Assembly (NCBI GenBank): GCA_036495095.1
Contig: DASXNK010000194.1
Coordinates: 14,498 to 78,497 of the forward strand
Reading direction: 5' to 3'
Source: Candidatus Dormiibacterota bacterium
GTDB taxonomy: Bacteria; Chloroflexota; Dormibacteria; Aeolococcales; Aeolococcaceae
DNA: 64,000 nt
A model generated the notes under the pieces. That model worked only from the letters and a program-made list of their open reading frames with translations. It did not search any database and was not told the DNA's origin. This document shows positions 43,021 through 52,121 of this stretch, in pieces (within the stretch, counting starts at the first letter, position 1; each line of letters opens with the position of its first letter). The position numbers were made by a program, and so were the translations under genes.

Positions 43021-44201
43021 CGCGGCGCCTCCGCCGTGCCGAGGTGGGCGGCAACCGCCTCGGCCAGCTCGAGCACCGGCACCGTCGCCGCCCCCTCGAG
43101 CCGGGCGGCGCAGCGCGCACAACCGGTGACCACCGCGCTGGCGCCGGCCGCGGCCGCGGCGGCGACCTCGGCGGCGAGGCGGTCGCGGTACCCGCCCGCG
43201 ATCGTCGGGTGGGTGAGTGGCAGCCCGCCGCCGCCTCCGGAGCAGGCGGTGGTGGCGCCCCGGCCGCGCAGCTCGACGACCTCGAGCCCGAGGCCGCTCA
43301 GCACGGCCCGCGGCGGGGCGGTGCAGTCGAGGTGGCGGGCGAGGAAGCAGGGGTCGTGGTAGGCGACCCGGCCGGTGGCCCCGGCGGGGCGGCCGGCGAG
43401 CGCCGCGCCGAGAACGGCGGCGAGCGGCTCGACGGTCAGGCCGGCGCCGAGCTGCGCCGCCCGGGTCGCCAGCAGGTGGGCGCACGACGGCGACTGCACC
43501 GCCACCCGGCGCGCCCCGGTGGCGGCGACGGCGGCGCACAGCCGCTCCAGCATCGCGGTGAGCGCCCCGGTGTCGCCGAAGCTGCGCGCCGGCGCGCCGC
43601 AGCAGCGGTGCTCGTCGAGCACGGTGAAGGCGACGCCGAGGGCGTGGAGCGCCCGCCCCGCGGCCAGCGCCGCCGCCGGACGCAGGCCGAGGGCCCCGCA
43701 GCCGGGGAGCAGCAGCATCCCGGCACCGGGGGTGGCGAGGCGGCGGAGCCCGGCGAGCGTCCCCGCCGGGTCGGTCCAGGCCGGCGTGCCCGTCTCGGCG
43801 GCGGGAACCCGGCCGGCGGCGGCCTCGGCCACCGCGCGCAGCCCCACCGGCGGGGTGGCCCCGGCGGCGAAGACGGCGGCACGCACCGCCCAGCTCAGCT
43901 CCGGGGTCTCCACCCCGTCCACCCGGCAGGGTGGCGTGCAGGCGCCGCAGGTGGCGCAGGCGAACGCGGCCTCGGCGGTGGCCGGCGCGGCGAATCCGCC
44001 GGGGGTGCGCAGCGCCGCGAGCACGCTGCGGGCGTGGCCCCAGGGCTGGTGGCGCTCGTTGGCGGTCACCGCCAGGGTGGGGCAGGCACTGCGGCACATC
44101 TTCGGACAGGCGGCGCAGCGCCCGGCGGCGATCGCCTGCGCCTCCGGCAGGGGGAGGGCGGTCATCGCGCCGGCGATGAGCGGCCGGGGGGAGTCCCCCA
44201 C
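43017..44201 (-). CDS. Fe-S oxidoreductase with two cysteine-rich CCG domains (GlcF/GlpC-like)
   Basis: 'CAACPKMCRSACPT' ferredoxin-type motif plus 'HDPCFLARHLDC' CCG motif. Confidence 0.7.
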   Translation of the reverse strand: MGDSPRPLIAGAMTALPLPEAQAIAAGRCAACPKMCRSACPTLAVTANERHQPWGHARSVLAALRTPGGFAAPATAEAAFACATCGACTPPCRVDGVETPELSWAVRAAVFAAGATPPVGLRAVAEAAAGRVPAAETGTPAWTDPAGTLAGLRRLATPGAGMLLLPGCGALGLRPAAALAAGRALHALGVAFTVLDEHRCCGAPARSFGDTGALTAMLERLCAAVAATGARRVAVQSPSCAHLLATRAAQLGAGLTVEPLAAVLGAALAGRPAGATGRVAYHDPCFLARHLDCTAPPRAVLSGLGLEVVELRGRGATTACSGGGGGLPLTHPTIAGGYRDRLAAEVAAAAAAGASAVVTGCARCAARLEGAATVPVLELAEAVAAHLGTAEAPR

Positions 44202-44214
44202 GACAGGCCCGCGC

Positions 44215-45645
44215 TCACAGCCCCCACTTCCCCGGGTTGGCGACCCCGCCGGGGTCGAGCGCCAGCTTCAGCCGGCGGAGCACCTCGAGCCCGCCCTCCC
44301 CCAGCTCCGCGGCCATGTGGGGAGCCCGGGCGAGGCCGGCGCCGTGATGGTGGCCGATGCTCGCCCCGGTCTCGGCGGCGGCCGCCATCACCTCCTCCCA
44401 GAGCCGCTCGTGGAGGGGGACCGCCGCCTCCTCCTCGGCGGCGACGCCGGCGAAGCTGAAGTACAGGCAGGCCCCGTCGGGGTAGCCGTGGCTGAGGTGG
44501 CAGAGCACGATCAGCCGTCCCCCCAGCCGACGGCGCACCGCCTCGTGGAGGGCCACCAGCCGCGACCAGGGAGCGGCGAGCTCGACGGTGTCGATCACCG
44601 CGCCGGGCAGGGGCAGGTAGCGCGCCTGGGCGAAGCCGATGTCGTCGCGGCGCGCGTACCAGGCGGCGACCGCGCCGGGGTCGCAGGCACGGGCGCCGTG
44701 GGCGGCGCAGATCGCGGCGAGCTCGGCGGCCTCGGCCCCGGCGACCCCGGCGCGGCCCTCGCAGGAGGTGAGCAGGAGCGCATCATCGTCCAGCCCCTCC
44801 CCCGCCCCCGCACCCACCCCCAGCTCGGCGGCCTGGAGGGCGGTGTCGGCGGGGTCGTAGAGGCGGAGCAGCGAGGGCCGCAGCCCGGCCTGGAGGAGCT
44901 CGCGCACCGCCGCCACCCCGGCCGCGAAGGTGGCGAACACGGCGGCGTGGTCGACCCGCCGCTCCGGCAGCGGACGGAGCCGGAGGGTCACCTCGACCAC
45001 CACTCCGAAGCCGCCCTCGCTGCCCAGGAACAGGCGGCGCAGATCGGGACCGGCGCCGCTCGCGGGCTGGGCGCGGAGGGAGACGGCGGTGCCGTCGGGG
45101 AGCACCGCCTCGAGGCCGGCGACGAGGTCGTCGATGCGCCCGTAGCGGGTGCTCAGCTGCCCCGCCGAACGGGTGGCCACGAAGCCGCCGACGGTGGACA
45201 GCGCCAGCGAGGAGGGGTGGTGGCCGGTGGTGCGGCCACGCTCGCGGCAGGCGTCCTCGAGGCGGCTGCCGAGCACCCCGGGCTCGACCACGACCCAGCC
45301 GCTCTCCAGATCCCAGTCGAGGATGCGGTCGAGCCGCTTGAGGTCGAGCACCACCCCGCCCCGGACCGGGACCGCGGCGCCGCACACCCCGGTGCCGGCG
45401 CCGAAGGGCGTGAAGGGCACCCCGGCACGGTGGCAGGTGGCGCAGACGGCTGCGACCTGTTCGCGGTCGGCGGGCCAGACCACTGCGTCGGGGCCGGGCA
45501 GGGGGTGGCCGCCGCGCTCGGCGATCAGCGCCCGCGGCCAGAGGTCGTGGGCGACGGCGTCGCGGTCGGCGGGCTCGGTGCTGAGCCCGCGGTCGCCGAC
45601 GGCCTCGCGGAGCTCGTCGAGAAACCCCGCAGGCAGAGCGCTCAC
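44215..45645 (-). CDS. FAD-linked oxidase (PCMH/GlcD family; FAD_binding_4 plus FAD-oxidase_C)
   Basis: 'PFTPFGAGTGVCGAAVP', 'GHHPSSLALSTVGGFVATRSAG'. GTG 45645 overlaps the upstream stop. The track ORF overextends. Confidence 0.7.
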   Translation of the reverse strand: MSALPAGFLDELREAVGDRGLSTEPADRDAVAHDLWPRALIAERGGHPLPGPDAVVWPADREQVAAVCATCHRAGVPFTPFGAGTGVCGAAVPVRGGVVLDLKRLDRILDWDLESGWVVVEPGVLGSRLEDACRERGRTTGHHPSSLALSTVGGFVATRSAGQLSTRYGRIDDLVAGLEAVLPDGTAVSLRAQPASGAGPDLRRLFLGSEGGFGVVVEVTLRLRPLPERRVDHAAVFATFAAGVAAVRELLQAGLRPSLLRLYDPADTALQAAELGVGAGAGEGLDDDALLLTSCEGRAGVAGAEAAELAAICAAHGARACDPGAVAAWYARRDDIGFAQARYLPLPGAVIDTVELAAPWSRLVALHEAVRRRLGGRLIVLCHLSHGYPDGACLYFSFAGVAAEEEAAVPLHERLWEEVMAAAAETGASIGHHHGAGLARAPHMAAELGEGGLEVLRRLKLALDPGGVANPGKWGL

Positions 45646-46937
45646 GCCGCCGCGACGCCGCGCAGGCGCGCCGCGGCCCGGCCGGCGCGCGCCCCCGTCC
45701 AGGCGGCGACGCCGAGGCCGCCGCCGCGCAGGGTGGTGTCGAGGCCACCGAGCAGAGCCCCGCAGGCGAGGAGGTTGTCGAGCACCGGGGCGCCGAAGCC
45801 GTCGACGGGGCGGCCCTCGGCGTCGGTGCGCACCCCGGCGGCGAGAAACGGCTGGGGCGTGAAGCGGGTTCGCTCGACCAGGTCGCGCGGGCTCTGCGCC
45901 TCGAGGGCGAGACCGCCGGCGAAGAGGGGCAGCCCGAGCAGCGGCTCGCGCGGCCGGGGCTCGCCGGTCAGCCCTCCACCGAGGAACTTCCCGGTGGCGA
46001 GGATCAGCACCTGGCAGCTCAGGGTGTCGCCGTCGGCGGCCACGACCGCGGTGACCCGGCGCCCGCCGCGGTGCACCCCCGTCACCGTGCCGGTGATCAC
46101 CTCCACCCCGGCGCGGCGGGCCATCGCCTCGGCGGCGCGGGCGAGCCGCCATCCCGGCGCCGACGGCGGCGGGCTGAGCAGCTCGGCGACCCGCACCCCG
46201 GCGGCCGCCTCGACCCGGGCGCGGACCCCGTCGGCGTCCTCGAGGCCGAGCACGGCGGGGAGCAGCGCCAGCTCCACGTCGCCGTCGCCGAGCCCGGCGC
46301 GGAGTGCCGCGCCCAGCGCCTCGGCCCCGCCCGGGCCCTCGACGGCGCGGGCGACGGTGGCGTCGTCGAGGTCTCCGGCGAGGCTCTCGTCGATGCCCGG
46401 AAGCTCCGGGTCGAGGGTGACGGCGCGGGCGGAGACGGCGTCGCCGAGGCGCTCGGCGATGGCCGCCGCGACCGCCGGGGCGTCGACGCGCAGCAGCCCG
46501 CGGATGCCGGCGACCGCGACCCGCCCGCCGCCGTCGAGGTCGCCTGCGCCAATGGTCTCGAGCACCACCCCCGCCCGGCGCAGCTGGCCGGTCACCGCGG
46601 CGAGCAGGGCCGGCCGGTCCAGGCCCACCCGCAGCCGGAGGCCGGCCCCGCCGAGCTCGGCGGCGAGGCGGCGGGCCTCGGCCTCGAGCTCGAACCGCGG
46701 GGGCGGCGCGGCGCCGCCGGCGACGTAGGGGTGGTCGGGCGCGTCGCGGGCGAGGCGGCCGAGCCAGCCTCCGGGGTCGGCGGCCTCGGCCGGAGGGACG
46801 AGGTCGAGGGCACCGGAGGAGACCGCAGTCGCAGCCGGGCCGCGCCGGACCAGGACGACCTGGAGCCCGGCACGGGCGGCGGTCACCGCCGCCCAGGCGC
46901 CCGCGAGTCCCCCGCCGACAACGACGACCTCCGGCAT
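45642..46937 (-). CDS. FAD-dependent oxidoreductase (GlpB-like Rossmann flavoprotein)
   Basis: 'VVVVGGGLAGAWAAVTAARAGLQVVLV' dinucleotide-binding motif; 431 aa. ATG 46937. Confidence 0.6.
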   Translation of the reverse strand: MPEVVVVGGGLAGAWAAVTAARAGLQVVLVRRGPAATAVSSGALDLVPPAEAADPGGWLGRLARDAPDHPYVAGGAAPPPRFELEAEARRLAAELGGAGLRLRVGLDRPALLAAVTGQLRRAGVVLETIGAGDLDGGGRVAVAGIRGLLRVDAPAVAAAIAERLGDAVSARAVTLDPELPGIDESLAGDLDDATVARAVEGPGGAEALGAALRAGLGDGDVELALLPAVLGLEDADGVRARVEAAAGVRVAELLSPPPSAPGWRLARAAEAMARRAGVEVITGTVTGVHRGGRRVTAVVAADGDTLSCQVLILATGKFLGGGLTGEPRPREPLLGLPLFAGGLALEAQSPRDLVERTRFTPQPFLAAGVRTDAEGRPVDGFGAPVLDNLLACGALLGGLDTTLRGGGLGVAAWTGARAGRAAARLRGVAAA

Positions 46938-46995
46938 GTCGCGGATGCTACCGGGCGCCGGCCCTCGGGCGGCCGCTCCGGCTGGGTGTGATCCG

Positions 46996-47946
46996 CTACC
47001 CGAGCTCGGCGGGCGCGCTCCCCGGACGCAGCCGCAGCCGGGTCTCCACCACATCCCGCCGCATCTGCTCGCTCAGCGCCTCCGGCGTGGCATAGCGGAC
47101 GTCGTCCCGCAGCCGCGACATGAACGCCACCCGCACCGGCTGGTGGTAGATGTCGCCGGAGAAGTCGAGCAGGTGGGGCTCGACGGTCAGCTTCGTCCCC
47201 CCGAAGGTGGGGCGGTAGCCGACGTAGGTCGCCGCCGCGTGCCACTCCCCGCGCACCCTCACCCAGGTGGCGTAGATGCCCCGCGGCGGCAGGCACTTGC
47301 CCGGGGTGATCGCCAGGTTGGCGGTCGGAAAGCCGAGCCCGGTGCCGATCCTCTCGCCGTGCTCGACCCGGGAGTCGACGAAGTAGGGGTGTCCGAGCAC
47401 GCGGTTGGCGCTGTCGAGGTCGCCGTGGGAGAGGGCGGCGCGCACCAGCGAGCTGGAGAACACCTCTCCCCCCTCGCGCTCGGCGTCGACCACGTCGACG
47501 TCGAAGCCCCGGGTGGCGCCCCAGGAGCGCAGGAAGGGGATGTCGCCGCTGCGGCGGTGGCCGAGGGCGAAGTCGTGGCCCACCACCATTCGGCGCAGGT
47601 TGAAGCCCTGGCTGAGCCGCTCCAGGAACTGCTCGGCGGTCCAGCGGCTGAGCTCGTGGGTGAACTCGAGCACCACCAGCCGGTCGAGCCCGGCGGCGGT
47701 GAGCAGGTCGGCCTTCTCGTCGAGGGTGGTCAGCCGCGGCGGGCAGTGATCGGGGTCGAGCACGCAGCGCGGATGGGGGTCGAAGGTGACCAGCACCGAC
47801 TCGCCGCCGTGCTCGGGAGCGGCGGACACCATCCGGTCGACGATGCGGCGGTGACCCCGGTGAACCCCGTCGAAGTTGCCGATGGTGACGAACGCGAGCG
47901 GGTCGCCCTCGCCGGCGCCGTCGGGCAGCCCGAACTCGGTCCTCAC
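46996..47946 (-). CDS. ribF: bifunctional riboflavin kinase / FMN adenylyltransferase
   Basis: 'VTIGNFDGVHRGHRRI', 'PTANL', flavokinase C-domain. Confidence 0.9.
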   Translation of the reverse strand: MRTEFGLPDGAGEGDPLAFVTIGNFDGVHRGHRRIVDRMVSAAPEHGGESVLVTFDPHPRCVLDPDHCPPRLTTLDEKADLLTAAGLDRLVVLEFTHELSRWTAEQFLERLSQGFNLRRMVVGHDFALGHRRSGDIPFLRSWGATRGFDVDVVDAEREGGEVFSSSLVRAALSHGDLDSANRVLGHPYFVDSRVEHGERIGTGLGFPTANLAITPGKCLPPRGIYATWVRVRGEWHAAATYVGYRPTFGGTKLTVEPHLLDFSGDIYHQPVRVAFMSRLRDDVRYATPEALSEQMRRDVVETRLRLRPGSAPAELG

Positions 47947-47947
47947 C

Positions 47948-48889
47948 TCAGCACCCGGCCAGCACCTTGGTGGGGCGGTAGAGATTGCCGGTGAGCTCGC
48001 CGACGGCGAGCAGCTCGCCGAGCGCGCTGTGGGCGCGGCAGGCCCCGCGGGGACGCGGATCGGGCAGCTTCGGCACCCACACCGACTGCCCGCGCTGCAC
48101 CTGGAGCGCCTGGGCGGGGCCGAGGTCGAGCCGGGGGAGGAAGGCGACGGCGAGGTCGAGCGGGCGGAGTGCGGCGGCGGGGTCGTCCATCGCCTCCAGC
48201 TCCGCGACGGTGATCGAGTCGGCGACGGTCATCGGGCCGTAGGCGGTGCGCTCGAGCCAGGCGAGCAGCCCGCCGGTTCCGAGGGCGTCGCCCACGTCGG
48301 AGGCGAGCACGCGCATGTAGGTGCCCTTGCCGCAGAGAACGTCGACCTCGGCCTCGGCGACCTCGCCGGGGCGGAACTCGAGCAGCCGTGCCTCGAGGAT
48401 CGTGACCGGGCGCGGCTGCCGCTCCACCTCCACCCCCTGGCGGGCGAGCTCGTAGAGGTGGCGCCCGTCGTGGCGCACCGCCGAGTGCATCGGCGGCACC
48501 TGCTCGATGTCGCCGACGAAGCGCGCCAGCGCCGCACGCACCGCGTCGGCGTCGACCGCGCTCGCATCGCCGGTGCGGGTGACCTCGCCCTCGAGGTCCA
48601 TGGTGGTGCTGCGCTCGCCGAGGCGGAGCACGCAGTGATAGCGCTTGGGCTGCTGGTGCAGGTAGTCGACCAGCCGGGTGGCCTGGCCGACACAGATCGG
48701 GAGCAGCCCGGTGGCGGCAGGATCGAGCGTCCCGGCGTGCCCCACGCGGCGCTCGCCGAGGATGCGGCGCACGTCGCGCACCGCCTGGAACGAGGTCACC
48801 CCCCGCGCCTTGTTGAGCGGCACGATGCCGTGATGGCGCGCGGGTGGGCGCCCCCGCCGGGTGGGGGCCGCCGTGACCGTCTCGTTCAC
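47948..48889 (-). CDS. truB: tRNA pseudouridine(55) synthase
   Basis: 'GIVPLNKARGVTSFQAVRDVRRILGERRVGHAGTLDPAATGLLPICVGQATRL'. GTG 48889 overlaps the nrnA stop. Confidence 0.9.
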   Translation of the reverse strand: MNETVTAAPTRRGRPPARHHGIVPLNKARGVTSFQAVRDVRRILGERRVGHAGTLDPAATGLLPICVGQATRLVDYLHQQPKRYHCVLRLGERSTTMDLEGEVTRTGDASAVDADAVRAALARFVGDIEQVPPMHSAVRHDGRHLYELARQGVEVERQPRPVTILEARLLEFRPGEVAEAEVDVLCGKGTYMRVLASDVGDALGTGGLLAWLERTAYGPMTVADSITVAELEAMDDPAAALRPLDLAVAFLPRLDLGPAQALQVQRGQSVWVPKLPDPRPRGACRAHSALGELLAVGELTGNLYRPTKVLAGC

Positions 48890-49884
48890 GGCGCGCTCAG
48901 CAGCTCGCGAGCGAGCTGCAGCACCCGCTCCTGGGCGGCCGCCAGCGGCAGCTGCAGCTCCGCGCCGGCGGCGCGGCGGTGGCCGCCACCCCCGAAGGGG
49001 GTGCAGAGGTCGGTGGCGTCGGCGTCGCCGCGGGAGCGCACGCTGATCTTGGTCAGCTCGGGCTGGAGCTCCTTGAAGAGCACCGCCAGGGTCATCGTGC
49101 TCACCGACTGGAGGACGTCGATGACGCCGTCGGTCTCCTGCCAGGTGCCGCCGGCCTCCGCCAGCATGTCCCGGGTCACCTCGGTCCAGACCAGCCGGCC
49201 GTCGAGCTCGCTGTGCATGCGGGCGACCGCGAGCGCCTCGAGGCGCAGGGTGCTCACGGCGCGGGACTTGTAGCTCTTCAGCGCGATCCACGCCGGATCG
49301 GCGCCGAGCTGCACCAGGTCGGCGCCGAGACGCAGCGCCGCCTCGGTGGTGTTCTCGTGACGGAAGCCGCCGGTGTCGGTGAGCAGCGCCGCGTAGAGGT
49401 TGGTCGCCGCCTCCGGCGGGATCGGCAGGTCGAGCTCGCGCAGCAGCCGGAAGACCACCTGGCCGGTGGCGCTGGCGTCGGCCTGGACCAGGTTCACCGA
49501 GCCGTAGGCGGTGTTGCTCACGTGGTGGTCGATGTTCACCACCGGGTGGGCGCCGGATTCGAGCAGGCTGCGCTTCTCGCCGAAACGGCCGGTGGTGGCG
49601 CAGTCGAAGGTGAAGATGGCATCGATCTGCTGCGGCTCCTGCTCCAGGGTCTCGAACCCGGGCAGGTAGTCGAGGGTGAACGGCACCGGGTCGGGGACCA
49701 CGGTGTGGGGCTCCTTGCCGATCGCACGCAGCGCCGCGGCGAAGGCGAGGGCGGAGCCGAGGCTGTCGGCGTCGGCGTCCTTGTGGGCCATGCAGACGAT
49801 GTGGTGACTGCTGTCGATGATCCTGCGGACGTCGCCGGCGACGTCGGACAGCGAGGGCCATGTGACAGCGGTGGTGGCCGTCAT
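48886..49884 (-). CDS. nrnA: DHH-DHHA1 phosphoesterase (NrnA-like nanoRNase / pAp phosphatase)
   Basis: 'IVCMAHKDADADSLGSAL', 'NIDHHVSN', 'GGGH'. Own ATG 49884 with AGGAGA RBS 7 nt upstream. Lies in the same open frame as rbfA. Confidence 0.8.
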   Translation of the reverse strand: MTATTAVTWPSLSDVAGDVRRIIDSSHHIVCMAHKDADADSLGSALAFAAALRAIGKEPHTVVPDPVPFTLDYLPGFETLEQEPQQIDAIFTFDCATTGRFGEKRSLLESGAHPVVNIDHHVSNTAYGSVNLVQADASATGQVVFRLLRELDLPIPPEAATNLYAALLTDTGGFRHENTTEAALRLGADLVQLGADPAWIALKSYKSRAVSTLRLEALAVARMHSELDGRLVWTEVTRDMLAEAGGTWQETDGVIDVLQSVSTMTLAVLFKELQPELTKISVRSRGDADATDLCTPFGGGGHRRAAGAELQLPLAAAQERVLQLARELLSAP

Positions 49885-50286
49885 GCCGGTGTCTCCTGAG
49901 GGGTGCGGCGGCCGCGCGACGGCCGGCGGGGTGGGGGGGGCGGGCGGGCTGTGGGGGGTGTCGTCGAGCCCGCGCAGCATCGCGCTGACCCGCACCGCGT
50001 AGGCGATGGAGTCGTCGAGCACGAAGTGCAGCCGCGGGATGTTCTTGAGGTTCTCGAGCCGGTCGCCGAGGGTCGAGCGCAGGAAGCCCTCGGCGTGGCG
50101 CAACCCGGCCATCACCGCCTCGCGCTCGGCGTCGGTGCCGATCGCGCTGACCTTGACGGTGGCGCTGCGCAGGTCGCGCGAGGGGCGCACCTCGGTGACC
50201 GAGGCCATCCGGATGCGCGGATCCTTCATCTCCGTGAGCATGAGCATCGACAGCTCCTCACGGAGCTGCTTGGCGACGCGCAGCAT
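49885..50286 (-). CDS. rbfA: ribosome-binding factor A; as sequenced it has no in-frame stop and reads through a Pro-rich linker into nrnA
   Basis: 'MLRVAKQLREELSMLMLTEMKDPRIRMASVTEVRPSRDLRSATV' is canonical RbfA. A +1 frame would terminate at a TGA overlapping the nrnA ATG (ATGA). Confidence 0.7.
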
Positions 50287-50345
50287 CCGCTGCGGCCCAC
50301 CGCCGCCGCGGCCGGCCGGGGCGGTGGCGTCTCCCGGTCTCCAGG

Positions 50346-52121
50346 TCACAGGTTCTGCTGCTCGACCACGTACGCCTCGAGGATGTCCCTCTCCTGGAAG
50401 TCGGAGAAGTCCTCGAGCGTGATGCCGCACTCGTAGCCCTGGGCCACCTCGCGCACGTCGTCGCGGAAGCGCCGCAGCTGGGCCATGCGTCCCTTGGCCA
50501 CCTCCCTGCCGTCGCGCAGCACCCGGACGATGGCGTTGCGGGTGATCCTGCCCTCGGTGACGTAGGAGCCGGCGATCGAGGCGCGGCCGTCGACGGTGAA
50601 GACCTTGCGGACCTCGGCGCGGCCCTGGAGGACCTCGACGAAGGTTGGCTCGTAGAGACCCCGGATCGCCTTCACGATGTCGTCGGTCACCTGGTAGATG
50701 ACGTCGTAGTAGCGCACGTCGACGCCCTGCGACTCCGCCGCCGCGCGGGCGGCCACGTCGGGCTTGACGTTGAAGCCGATCACGATCGAGTCGCTCACCG
50801 CGGCGAGGTTCACGTCGGACTCGCCGACCTCACCGACGCTGTCGGCGACGATCTTGATGCGGACGGTCGGGTCCGAGATCTGGAGGATCTGCCCCTTCAG
50901 CGCCTCGAGCGAGCCGTTCGCCTCCGCCTTGATGATCAGGTTGAGGGTCTTGAGACCGCCCTCGTTGATCTGGCTGGCGAGGTCCGCGAGGGTGATCCGG
51001 CGCACCGGCTGGGCCCTCTGCTTGTCCGCCTGGAAGCCACGCTGCTCGGCGAGGTTCCTCGCCGCGCGCTCGGTGTCCATCACCTGGAAGATCTCGCCGG
51101 CGACGACCACATCGGAGAGGCCGGTGACCACCACGGGAAGGCTCGGTCCCGCCTCCTTGACCCGCTTGCCGGTGTCGTCGATGAGTGCGCGGACCTTGCC
51201 GAAGACCGAGCCGGCGACGATGTTGTCGCCGATCCGCAGGGTGCCGTTCTGCACCAGCGCGGTGGCGATCGGGCCGCGGCCGCGCTCGAGGTGGGCGTCG
51301 ATCACCGTGCCCACCGCCGGACCGTTCGGGTTGGCCTTGGGATCCTCGATCTCGGTGAGCAGCAGGATCATCTCGAGCAGGTCGTCGATGCCCTGGCCGG
51401 TGCGCGCGCTGGTGCGCACCACCGGGGTGGTGCCGCCGTACTCCTCGGGGATCAGGTCGCGCTCGGCGAGCTGCTGGAGCACCCGCTCCGGGTTGGCGTT
51501 GTCGCGGTCGATCTTGTTGAGGGCGATCAGGATCGGCACCCCGGCGGTGCGGACGTGCTGGATCGCCTCCTCGGTCTGGGGCATGACGCCGTCGTCGGCG
51601 GCGACCACGAGGACGGCGACGTCGGTGACGTCGGCCCCTCGGGCGCGCATCGCGGTGAAGGCGGCATGGCCCGGGGTGTCGATGAAGGTGATCTTCCGGC
51701 CGTTCTTCTCGATCTGATACGCGCCGATGCGCTGGGTGATCCCGCCCGCCTCACCTGCGGCCACCTTGGTCTGGCGGATGGCGTCGAGCAGCGACGTCTT
51801 GCCGTGGTCGACATGGCCCAGCACGGCGACGACCGGCGGGCGCGGGACCAGCGACGCGGGGTCCGCCTTCGAGAGGTCGAGGAGGGGATGGCGCACCCGG
51901 CGCCCCTCGGCCGGGGCTGCAGCCGGGGCCGCATCCTCGTTCTCCGCCTCGAACCCGAAGTGGTCGGCGGCCAGGGCCATGGTGTCGAAGTCCAGGGCCT
52001 GGTTGACGTTCGCCATCACCCCGTTGCCCATCAGGTACTTGATGAGCTGGGGGCCGGAGACCGAGAGACGGTCGGACAGCTCCTTCACCGTGAGCGTCGC
52101 GGGCAGGGTCAGCTTCTTCAC
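50346..52121 (-). CDS. infB: translation initiation factor IF-2 (short form)
   Basis: '[16 protein letters not shown]', 'DTPGH', 'NKID'. GTG start overlaps the ylxR stop. Confidence 0.95.

Follow-up and report, generated by a model that had tools for sequence, protein, structure and literature searches.

Are rbfA and nrnA, which encode a 30S maturation factor and a nanoRNase, joined in a single natural gene in Candidatus Dormibacterota, or do they only appear to be joined because of a C-rich stretch between them? The question is raised by a 64,000-nt stretch of DNA (the window hereafter; GenBank assembly GCA_036495095.1, contig DASXNK010000194.1, positions 14,498 to 78,497), in which a reading made without database searches (the sequence-only reading) had seen RbfA continue through a Pro-rich linker into the ATG of a DHH-DHHA1 phosphoesterase, and had proposed either a genuine RbfA-NrnA fusion or a homopolymer sequencing error or phase-variable tract. 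Our comparison with related loci points to a genuine fusion that is evolutionarily fixed in one clade of Candidatus Dormibacterota, a reading to which we assign, on sequence evidence, a probability of about 0.9.

The continuous frame described by the sequence-only reading is present. It runs uninterrupted on the minus strand, which that reading had not stated, from 50430 to 48886, a 514-aa open reading frame (ORF) in which three Pfam domains lie above their cut-offs, namely RBFA (PF02033; aa 48-152, 101 bits against a cut-off of 34.7, covering positions 1-105 of 105), DHH (PF01368; aa 210-348, 61.6 bits against 28.1) and DHHA1 (PF02272; aa 425-512, 33.2 bits against 25.9). The RbfA 'core' of 134 aa given in that reading proved to be the core plus the linker, counted from the ATG at 50286. 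Continuity alone is not beyond chance, since at 74% GC a 26-codon stretch is free of stops about two-thirds of the time and adjacent genes are in frame in one-third of cases, and the significance of the fusion was therefore drawn from its conservation in relatives.

Protein searches used the 466-aa product of that ATG as query, and DNA scans covered GTDB species representatives and JGI metagenomes. An in-frame, stop-free rbfA-nrnA was found in 12 DNA loci (the window, L001-L006, L011 and L017-L020), the 11 loci other than the window being independent metagenome-assembled genomes (MAGs) or metagenome contigs with 84-97% protein identity. The scan of JGI metagenome contigs gave five loci, one of which (L021) was distant and unfused. 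At the protein level some 28 fused clusters (at 90% identity), 78-90% identical to the query and 444-482 aa long, carried all three Pfam domains; they were drawn from JGI, ENA, NCBI and Logan assemblies labelled Candidatus Dormibacteraeota or 'Chloroflexi' MAGs. The same in-frame junction in these loci and clusters favours the first of the two alternatives of the sequence-only reading. In the alignment of the fused proteins the domains were conserved and the linker was variable in both sequence and length, and a codon alignment of the 12 loci resolved the linker differences into substitutions and indels of 3, 18 and 27 nt, none of them out of frame. A neighbour-joining tree of the NrnA moiety placed the 28 fused tips in one monophyletic group with no unfused tip inside it, identity in this moiety being at least 79% within the fused set and at most 75% between fused and unfused proteins. 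One protein (P0030, 332 aa, 80% identity) had the appearance of an unfused member of the clade and was rejected as such: the contigs that carry it break off 32-40 nt before the ATG, and the upstream frame is open, as in a truncated fused gene. Another (P0033, 350 aa, from NCBI/ENA, on a contig of 32,959 nt) has a normal RbfA-linker-DHH start followed by Arg/Pro-rich nonsense after about aa 310, which indicates a frameshift within nrnA, so that the MAG has here either an assembly error or a pseudogene.

Comparison with orthologous loci, which the sequence-only reading had proposed as a check, was divided by distance. The close relatives are fused, in favour of the fusion, and separate genes occur only in distant Dormibacterota (L007-L010, L012, L013, L027 and L028), which share the operon with the window and have proteins 65-75% identical to it but encode two polypeptides rather than one. 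In the unfused loci rbfA is always one frame off nrnA, and in eight of the nine its TGA overlaps the nrnA start as (A/G)TGA; L028 has a 5-nt gap instead, and in the distant locus L021 the genes overlap without being fused. The RbfA tail of these relatives is variable (15-30 aa), a GGAG-type Shine-Dalgarno (SD) sequence is embedded in the 3' end of rbfA at the same place as in the window, and the N-termini of their NrnA proteins are not conserved as protein. The out-of-frame TGA that the sequence-only reading had noticed across the internal ATG is likewise there: the +1 frame over the window's junction reads CCT CAG GAG ACA CCG GCA TGA (PQETPA, then stop) and ends at the TGA of the ATGA, and the separate NTGA-overlapping genes of the distant relatives bear out the view of this ATGA as a remnant of once separate genes. 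In L027, the closest unfused locus, rbfA ends with CCG GCG GAG ACG ACG GAA TGA (PPAETTE, then stop) in the arrangement GGAGA-N7-ATGA. Because this end matches the +1 frame of the fused clade and shares its 7-nt spacer, the comparison places the probable frame shift upstream of the SD; an ancestral 1-nt insertion in the spacer between SD and start, which L007 and L013 had suggested, was not supported by it. The linker corresponds to what was once the C-terminal tail of RbfA, now translated in a different frame. Since the fused tips are monophyletic and the distant relatives keep NTGA-overlapping genes, separate genes are the ancestral state and the fusion arose once in the clade, from an NTGA overlap.

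We propose the following course of events. In the ancestor the rbfA stop would have overlapped the nrnA start, the two genes being translationally coupled, and a net shift of one frame in the variable, disordered RbfA tail, upstream of the nrnA SD, would have removed the TGA from the reading frame. From then on translation would have run from RbfA through a flexible Pro-rich linker of about 26 aa into NrnA, yielding a chain of about 52 kDa, while the SD (AGGAGA) and ATG of the ancestral nrnA stayed inside the ORF. The locus would make two products, a tethered RbfA-NrnA and, by internal initiation, a free NrnA of 332 aa, and the tether would bring the nuclease to maturing 30S subunits. If so, it illustrates how in nature a single frame shift within a disordered tail can turn a 4-nt NTGA overlap into a fusion that keeps the internal start signal.

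The internal start signal itself, an ATG with its own AGGAGA as the sequence-only reading had said, is conserved at the nucleotide level. AGGAGA is invariant in all 12 fused loci, and a 23-nt run comprising this SD, the 7-nt spacer and the ATG (CCTCAGGAGACACCGGCATGACG) is invariant across nine full-length fused genes whose pairwise nucleotide identity is 87-97% and in which 53% of third positions are invariant. This run ties for the second-longest invariant run in the 1.4-kb gene, with only the stretches that code for catalytic motifs I and II being comparable, although it falls where the protein varies most. The codons that spell the SD are TCA-GGA, or GCA-GGA in L006; in the genes of the window TCA accounts for 2.1% of the codons for Ser, GGA for 5.0% of those for Gly and GCA for 1.5% of those for Ala, and A-ending codons as a whole amount to 1.4%, in a genome whose GC content at third positions (GC3) is 96%. 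Because the SD/ATG run is invariant and is spelled in such rare A-ending codons, we lean slightly towards the view that ribosomes still initiate at ATG 49884 and make free NrnA alongside the fusion. In-frame internal initiation that gives two isoforms is familiar from Escherichia coli, in infB (IF2-alpha and IF2-beta), cheA (long and short forms) and clpB. The window locus resembles these genes in having an SD and a start inside a longer ORF, with a full-length and an N-terminally shorter product, and differs in that the E. coli isoforms are experimentally documented whereas those proposed here are inferred from nucleotide conservation and rare codons. The tryptic peptide spanning the junction of the fused protein would be PPHPSGDTGMTATTAVTWPSLSDVAGDVR, and the N-terminal peptide expected for NrnA started at the internal ATG would be MTATTAVTWPSLSDVAGDVR.

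The same architecture is found in other lineages. A query spanning the junction, run on a set of 1.84 billion representative proteins, brought up about 38 more clusters (at 50% identity), 430-510 aa long and matched over both halves at 30-41% identity, and RBFA, DHH and DHHA1 were confirmed by Pfam in nine of the nine that were tested. A profile search added about 30 more, including proteins of a Limnochordaceae MAG (MBE3582958.1) and a Candidatus Hydrogenedentota MAG (MBI2421993.1), both of which are labelled '30S ribosome-binding factor RbfA' at NCBI. Three of these other-lineage genes could be seen in context, and all lie between infB (with or without DUF503) and truB-ribF. The fusions of other phyla (MBE3582958.1, MBI2421993.1 and the large high-GC group of P0290, which comprises P0279-P0301 and L022) thus share the three domains and the operon position of the window gene, but are 26-41% identical to its protein, have unrelated linkers and mostly lack a junction Met or SD. 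As most of them have no internal Met at the junction, the fused protein must there supply the NrnA activity. The nearest relatives of the Dormibacterota fused clade and of the Limnochordaceae protein are themselves unfused, so by parsimony the fusions probably arose independently several times. The RBFA+DHH+DHHA1 architecture is therefore best seen as recurrent and already present, unremarked, in the databases, the Dormibacterota case being a new, clade-fixed member of it.

Some details of these other lineages may be added. In L022 (4001-5329), which belongs to a high-GC fused lineage unrelated to the window, an in-frame CCG ATG ACG is retained near aa 105-115, at the junction; this ATGA remnant suggests that there, too, an NTGA overlap and a subsequent frame shift led, independently, to a fusion. 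In L022 and L023 (3688-3987) and in L026 (3720-4001) infB and the fused gene are separated by a small DUF503 gene, which is absent from the Dormibacterota window. A 593-aa protein of another lineage (P0193) combines the C-terminal domain of IF-2, RBFA and the beginning of DHH in a single chain; it may represent a triple fusion of infB, rbfA and nrnA, unless the call is artefactual or truncated.

How far can other explanations account for the window? The poly-C tracts reported by the sequence-only reading are in the linker, one of 6 nt (49953-49958) and one of 8 nt (49933-49940). Both arise from an 18-nt tandem duplication (Table 1) that, in the codon alignment, accounts exactly for the 18 nt by which the linker of the window exceeds those of its closest relatives L001 (97% protein identity) and L017 (94%), and that shows a linker apparently evolving by in-frame slippage. 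The tracts are restricted to the window, most fused relatives having no C run longer than 5. A miscounted C in either tract, joining by a sequencing or assembly error two really separate ATGA-overlapping genes, is in keeping with the presence of the homopolymers, with the fact that a 1-nt deletion restores the stop at the ATGA (an insertion, which the sequence-only reading had treated alike, gives only a long out-of-frame tail) and with the probable non-independence of the only identical copy (L014, JGI contig Ga0376677_0000141, identical over 4.4 kb and probably from the same source or sample). But the frame relation is the same in the 11 further loci and in some 28 clusters, which come from various projects and assemblers and are mostly free of long C runs, so an error in the window's homopolymers cannot explain the fusion; moreover, the duplication is clean relative to L001 and L017, and an additional error of ±1 would break the frame with the relatives on both sides of the tracts. 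We regard such an error as extremely improbable. A phase-variable contingency tract, with poly-C slippage toggling between the fused form and separate RbfA and NrnA, is very improbable too: the 8-C run within the ORF is long enough for slipped-strand mispairing, and a change of -1 gives the ancestral two-gene state, so that both states would be viable, but the tract is an unconserved by-product of the duplication, the relatives include no length variant of ±1 (all differences being multiples of 3 nt), the fused clade has no unfused member, and we know of no link between ribosome-assembly housekeeping genes and phase variation. The second alternative of the sequence-only reading thus falls in both its forms. 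Programmed recoding, in which a +1 shift in the C-rich linker would end RbfA at the TGA of the ATGA and make the fusion the minor product, would find its stop codon in the +1 frame and could use C-rich or Pro-rich codons, which can be slippery, yet across the 12 fused loci there is no conserved slippery motif, the linker nucleotides vary, the C tracts are mostly absent and only the SD and ATG are conserved, and we give this explanation next to no weight.

A less remote, though still unlikely, explanation is that the locus continues to work as two proteins, the read-through chain being neutral or slightly deleterious (cleaved or unstable), functional NrnA coming essentially all from the internal start and RbfA carrying a dispensable appendage. 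The strict conservation of the internal SD and ATG is what this would lead one to expect, the linker is predicted to be disordered and hence open to proteases, and a fusion at an NTGA overlap requires a single indel and may drift to fixation. What speaks for a functional fusion instead is that the same fusion without a junction Met in other phyla must provide the NrnA activity there, that in the clade itself neither a reversion nor a new stop has appeared over a divergence to as little as 79% identity and at least four linker indel events, and that ribosomes arriving from rbfA would yield the fused chain in any case.

Several points weigh against a genuine fusion with two products. Some of the conservation of the SD and ATG might stem from a constraint on protein or RNA that has gone unrecognised, and both the accumulation of a polypeptide of about 52 kDa and the use of the internal ATG are inferred from the sequence. 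A GC3 frame test of the short linker gave 0.89 against 0.79 and 0.86, a separation of the frames that is too weak to be of use. With L014 probably not independent, the lengths of the C tracts in the window rest on frame consistency with the relatives. Finally, the lack of revertants in the fused clade may mean that too little time has passed, and not that selection maintains the fusion.

Both halves of the protein have the features expected of their families. The RbfA half passes the NCBIfam RbfA equivalog TIGR00082 (85.1 against a cut-off of 51.15), matches the PDB RbfA sequences 6YE5, 8BXA, 7AFL and 1KKG, and is encoded where RbfA is expected, immediately downstream of infB in a nusA-infB operon. 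An AlphaFold2 model based on an alignment of 42 fused proteins predicted, in this half, helix 2-18, strands 28-35 and 41-48, helices 52-64 and 66-76, strand 85-90 and then helix 93-108 (predicted local distance difference test (pLDDT) about 80-94). The resulting alpha-beta-beta-alpha-alpha-beta order with a C-terminal helix agrees with a type-II KH-like RbfA fold, whose order of elements (alpha1-beta1-beta2-alpha2-alpha3-beta3) we take to be that of the NMR structure of E. coli RbfA (PDB 1KKG). In the whole model residues 1-109 (RbfA) and 140-466 (NrnA) were confident and residues 110-139 had pLDDT values below 50, with a predicted template modelling score of 0.57; the linker is accordingly predicted to be a flexible tether with no fixed packing between the domains.

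In the phosphoesterase half the DHH catalytic motifs I-IV are present as HKDADAD (H-x3-D-x-D), FDCA (D), DHH and TDTG (D), in columns that are invariant or near-invariant, and the GGGH motif of DHHA1 is present as GGGGH and invariant in the alignment of relatives. The nearest solved structures, by phmmer against PDB, were TM1595, MSMEG_2630 (4LS9) and Rv2837c (5JJU), with E values of 1e-34 to 1e-35; Bacillus subtilis NrnA was farther away (1e-19), and the equivalog for NrnA of the B. subtilis type (NCBIfam NF053633) was not reached (66.4 bits against a cut-off of 350). Given these nearest structures and the missed cut-off, the moiety falls in the NrnA' group (Srivastav et al., 2014; PMC4081065) and is not to be classed as an orthologue of B. 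subtilis NrnA in the strict sense. Its activity is predicted as to type only, as that of a nanoRNase, pAp-phosphatase or pApA-hydrolase.

Mycobacteria offer the best studied comparison. In Mycobacterium smegmatis the genes MSMEG_2628-2630 have the order infB-rbfA-nrnA' and are co-transcribed (Srivastav et al., 2014), and the order of infB, rbfA and the DHH/DHHA1 enzyme in the window is that of these Actinobacteria, including M. tuberculosis (Rv2839c-Rv2837c, the last being CnpB). The two differ in that mycobacterial rbfA and nrnA' are separate ORFs followed by a MATE/dinF gene, whereas the window has one ORF followed by truB-ribF. The first 21 residues of MSMEG_2630 are disordered, the enzyme dimerises not through its N-terminus but through the end of the DHH domain, the linker between the domains and the first helix of DHHA1, and it is active with an N-terminal His10-Smt3 tag (Srivastav et al., 2014); for these reasons, and by analogy, an enzyme of the NrnA' type is likely to tolerate an N-terminal partner. 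The paper that described the infB-rbfA-nrnA' synteny does not mention fusions, and in the literature on RbfA combined with NrnA, DHH or fusion, within an incomplete coverage, we found this synteny paper but no description of an RbfA-NrnA fusion.

What, then, might the fusion mean? Fusions between operon neighbours are common. The RbfA-NrnA case stands out by its independent recurrence at the same junction in several phyla and by its joining of a 30S maturation factor to a nanoRNase. The repeated fusion might be a Rosetta-stone signal that places nanoRNases at the maturing 30S subunit, with the Dormibacterota gene a two-isoform version of it (tethered plus free NrnA), although we hold this combined interpretation to be doubtful. 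If it were true, NrnA' could remove or trim short fragments from the ends of 17S/pre-16S rRNA where RbfA binds, and the unexplained synteny of rbfA and nrnA', including that of M. tuberculosis CnpB (Rv2837c), would gain a concrete, testable function. The synteny of the nanoRNase with infB-rbfA was noted in 2014 and never explained, and the lead given by the fusions is the question of whether NrnA'/CnpB acts on or near the pre-30S particle. For annotation, one rbfA::nrnA ORF of 487 aa should be called, with no frameshift 'correction'; the current labels of the relatives are simply RbfA at NCBI and RecJ-like or NrnA at JGI.

Table 1. Features of the rbfA::nrnA locus in the window (positions are those of the window).
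Feature	Position	Strand	Details
Fused rbfA::nrnA ORF	48886..50349	-	487 aa from GTG 50349-50347; stop TGA 48888-48886
RbfA domain (KH-like fold)	49975..50289	-	Pfam PF02033
Pro/Ala-rich linker, 26 aa	49885..49962	-	DTPHSPPAPPTPPAVARPPHPSGDTG; between AMLRGLD and MTATTAVTWP
18-nt tandem duplication	49921..49958		Tandem Repeats Finder period 18, 2.1 copies, + strand consensus GGCCGGCGGGCTGGGGGG; window-specific; adds 6 codons
Shine-Dalgarno-like AGGAGA	49892..49897	-	7 nt upstream of internal ATG; codons TCA-GGA-GAC
ATGA	49881..49884	-	In-frame ATG 49884-49882 (former nrnA start); out-of-frame TGA 49883-49881 (former rbfA stop)
NrnA-type DHH/DHHA1 phosphoesterase moiety, 332 aa	48886..49884	-	DHH 49387-49803; DHHA1 48895-49158
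GTGA overlap of infB and rbfA::nrnA	50346..50349	-	infB stop TGA 50348-50346; probable rbfA::nrnA start GTG 50349-50347
GTGA overlap of rbfA::nrnA and truB	48886..48889	-	Fused-gene stop with truB start GTG 48889-48887; JGI gene calls share 4 nt

Two starts are available to the fused gene. That at ATG 50286-50284 gives the 466-aa protein of the JGI gene call, and a 466-aa protein of the JGI collection (P0001) is 100% identical to the window product. The Met at 50286 is, however, replaced by Leu in four fused relatives (P0020, P0021, P0025 and P0026), and the 21-residue N-terminal extension that begins at GTG 50349 is conserved, the relatives starting there with M/V-T-F/S-R; for these reasons GTG 50349 is more probably the real start, and the protein then has 487 aa.

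The operon has the order rimP-nusA-ylxR-infB-rbfA::nrnA-truB-ribF, with infB (50346-52121, minus strand) directly upstream of the fused gene, and no second copy of rbfA or nrnA was found within the window. The starts of rbfA at 50349 and of truB at 48889 have no recognisable SD, and the internal AGGAGA is the sole strong SD, the remaining starts in the operon having weaker motifs or none. As neither of the starts in the two GTGA overlaps has a recognisable SD, the operon appears to rely on NTGA termination-reinitiation coupling.

Elsewhere in the window, at 43375-47054, both strands carry very long overlapping ORFs (up to 1117 aa) of the spurious antisense kind that is typical of a genome with 74% GC, so that ORF length alone is no evidence in this genome.

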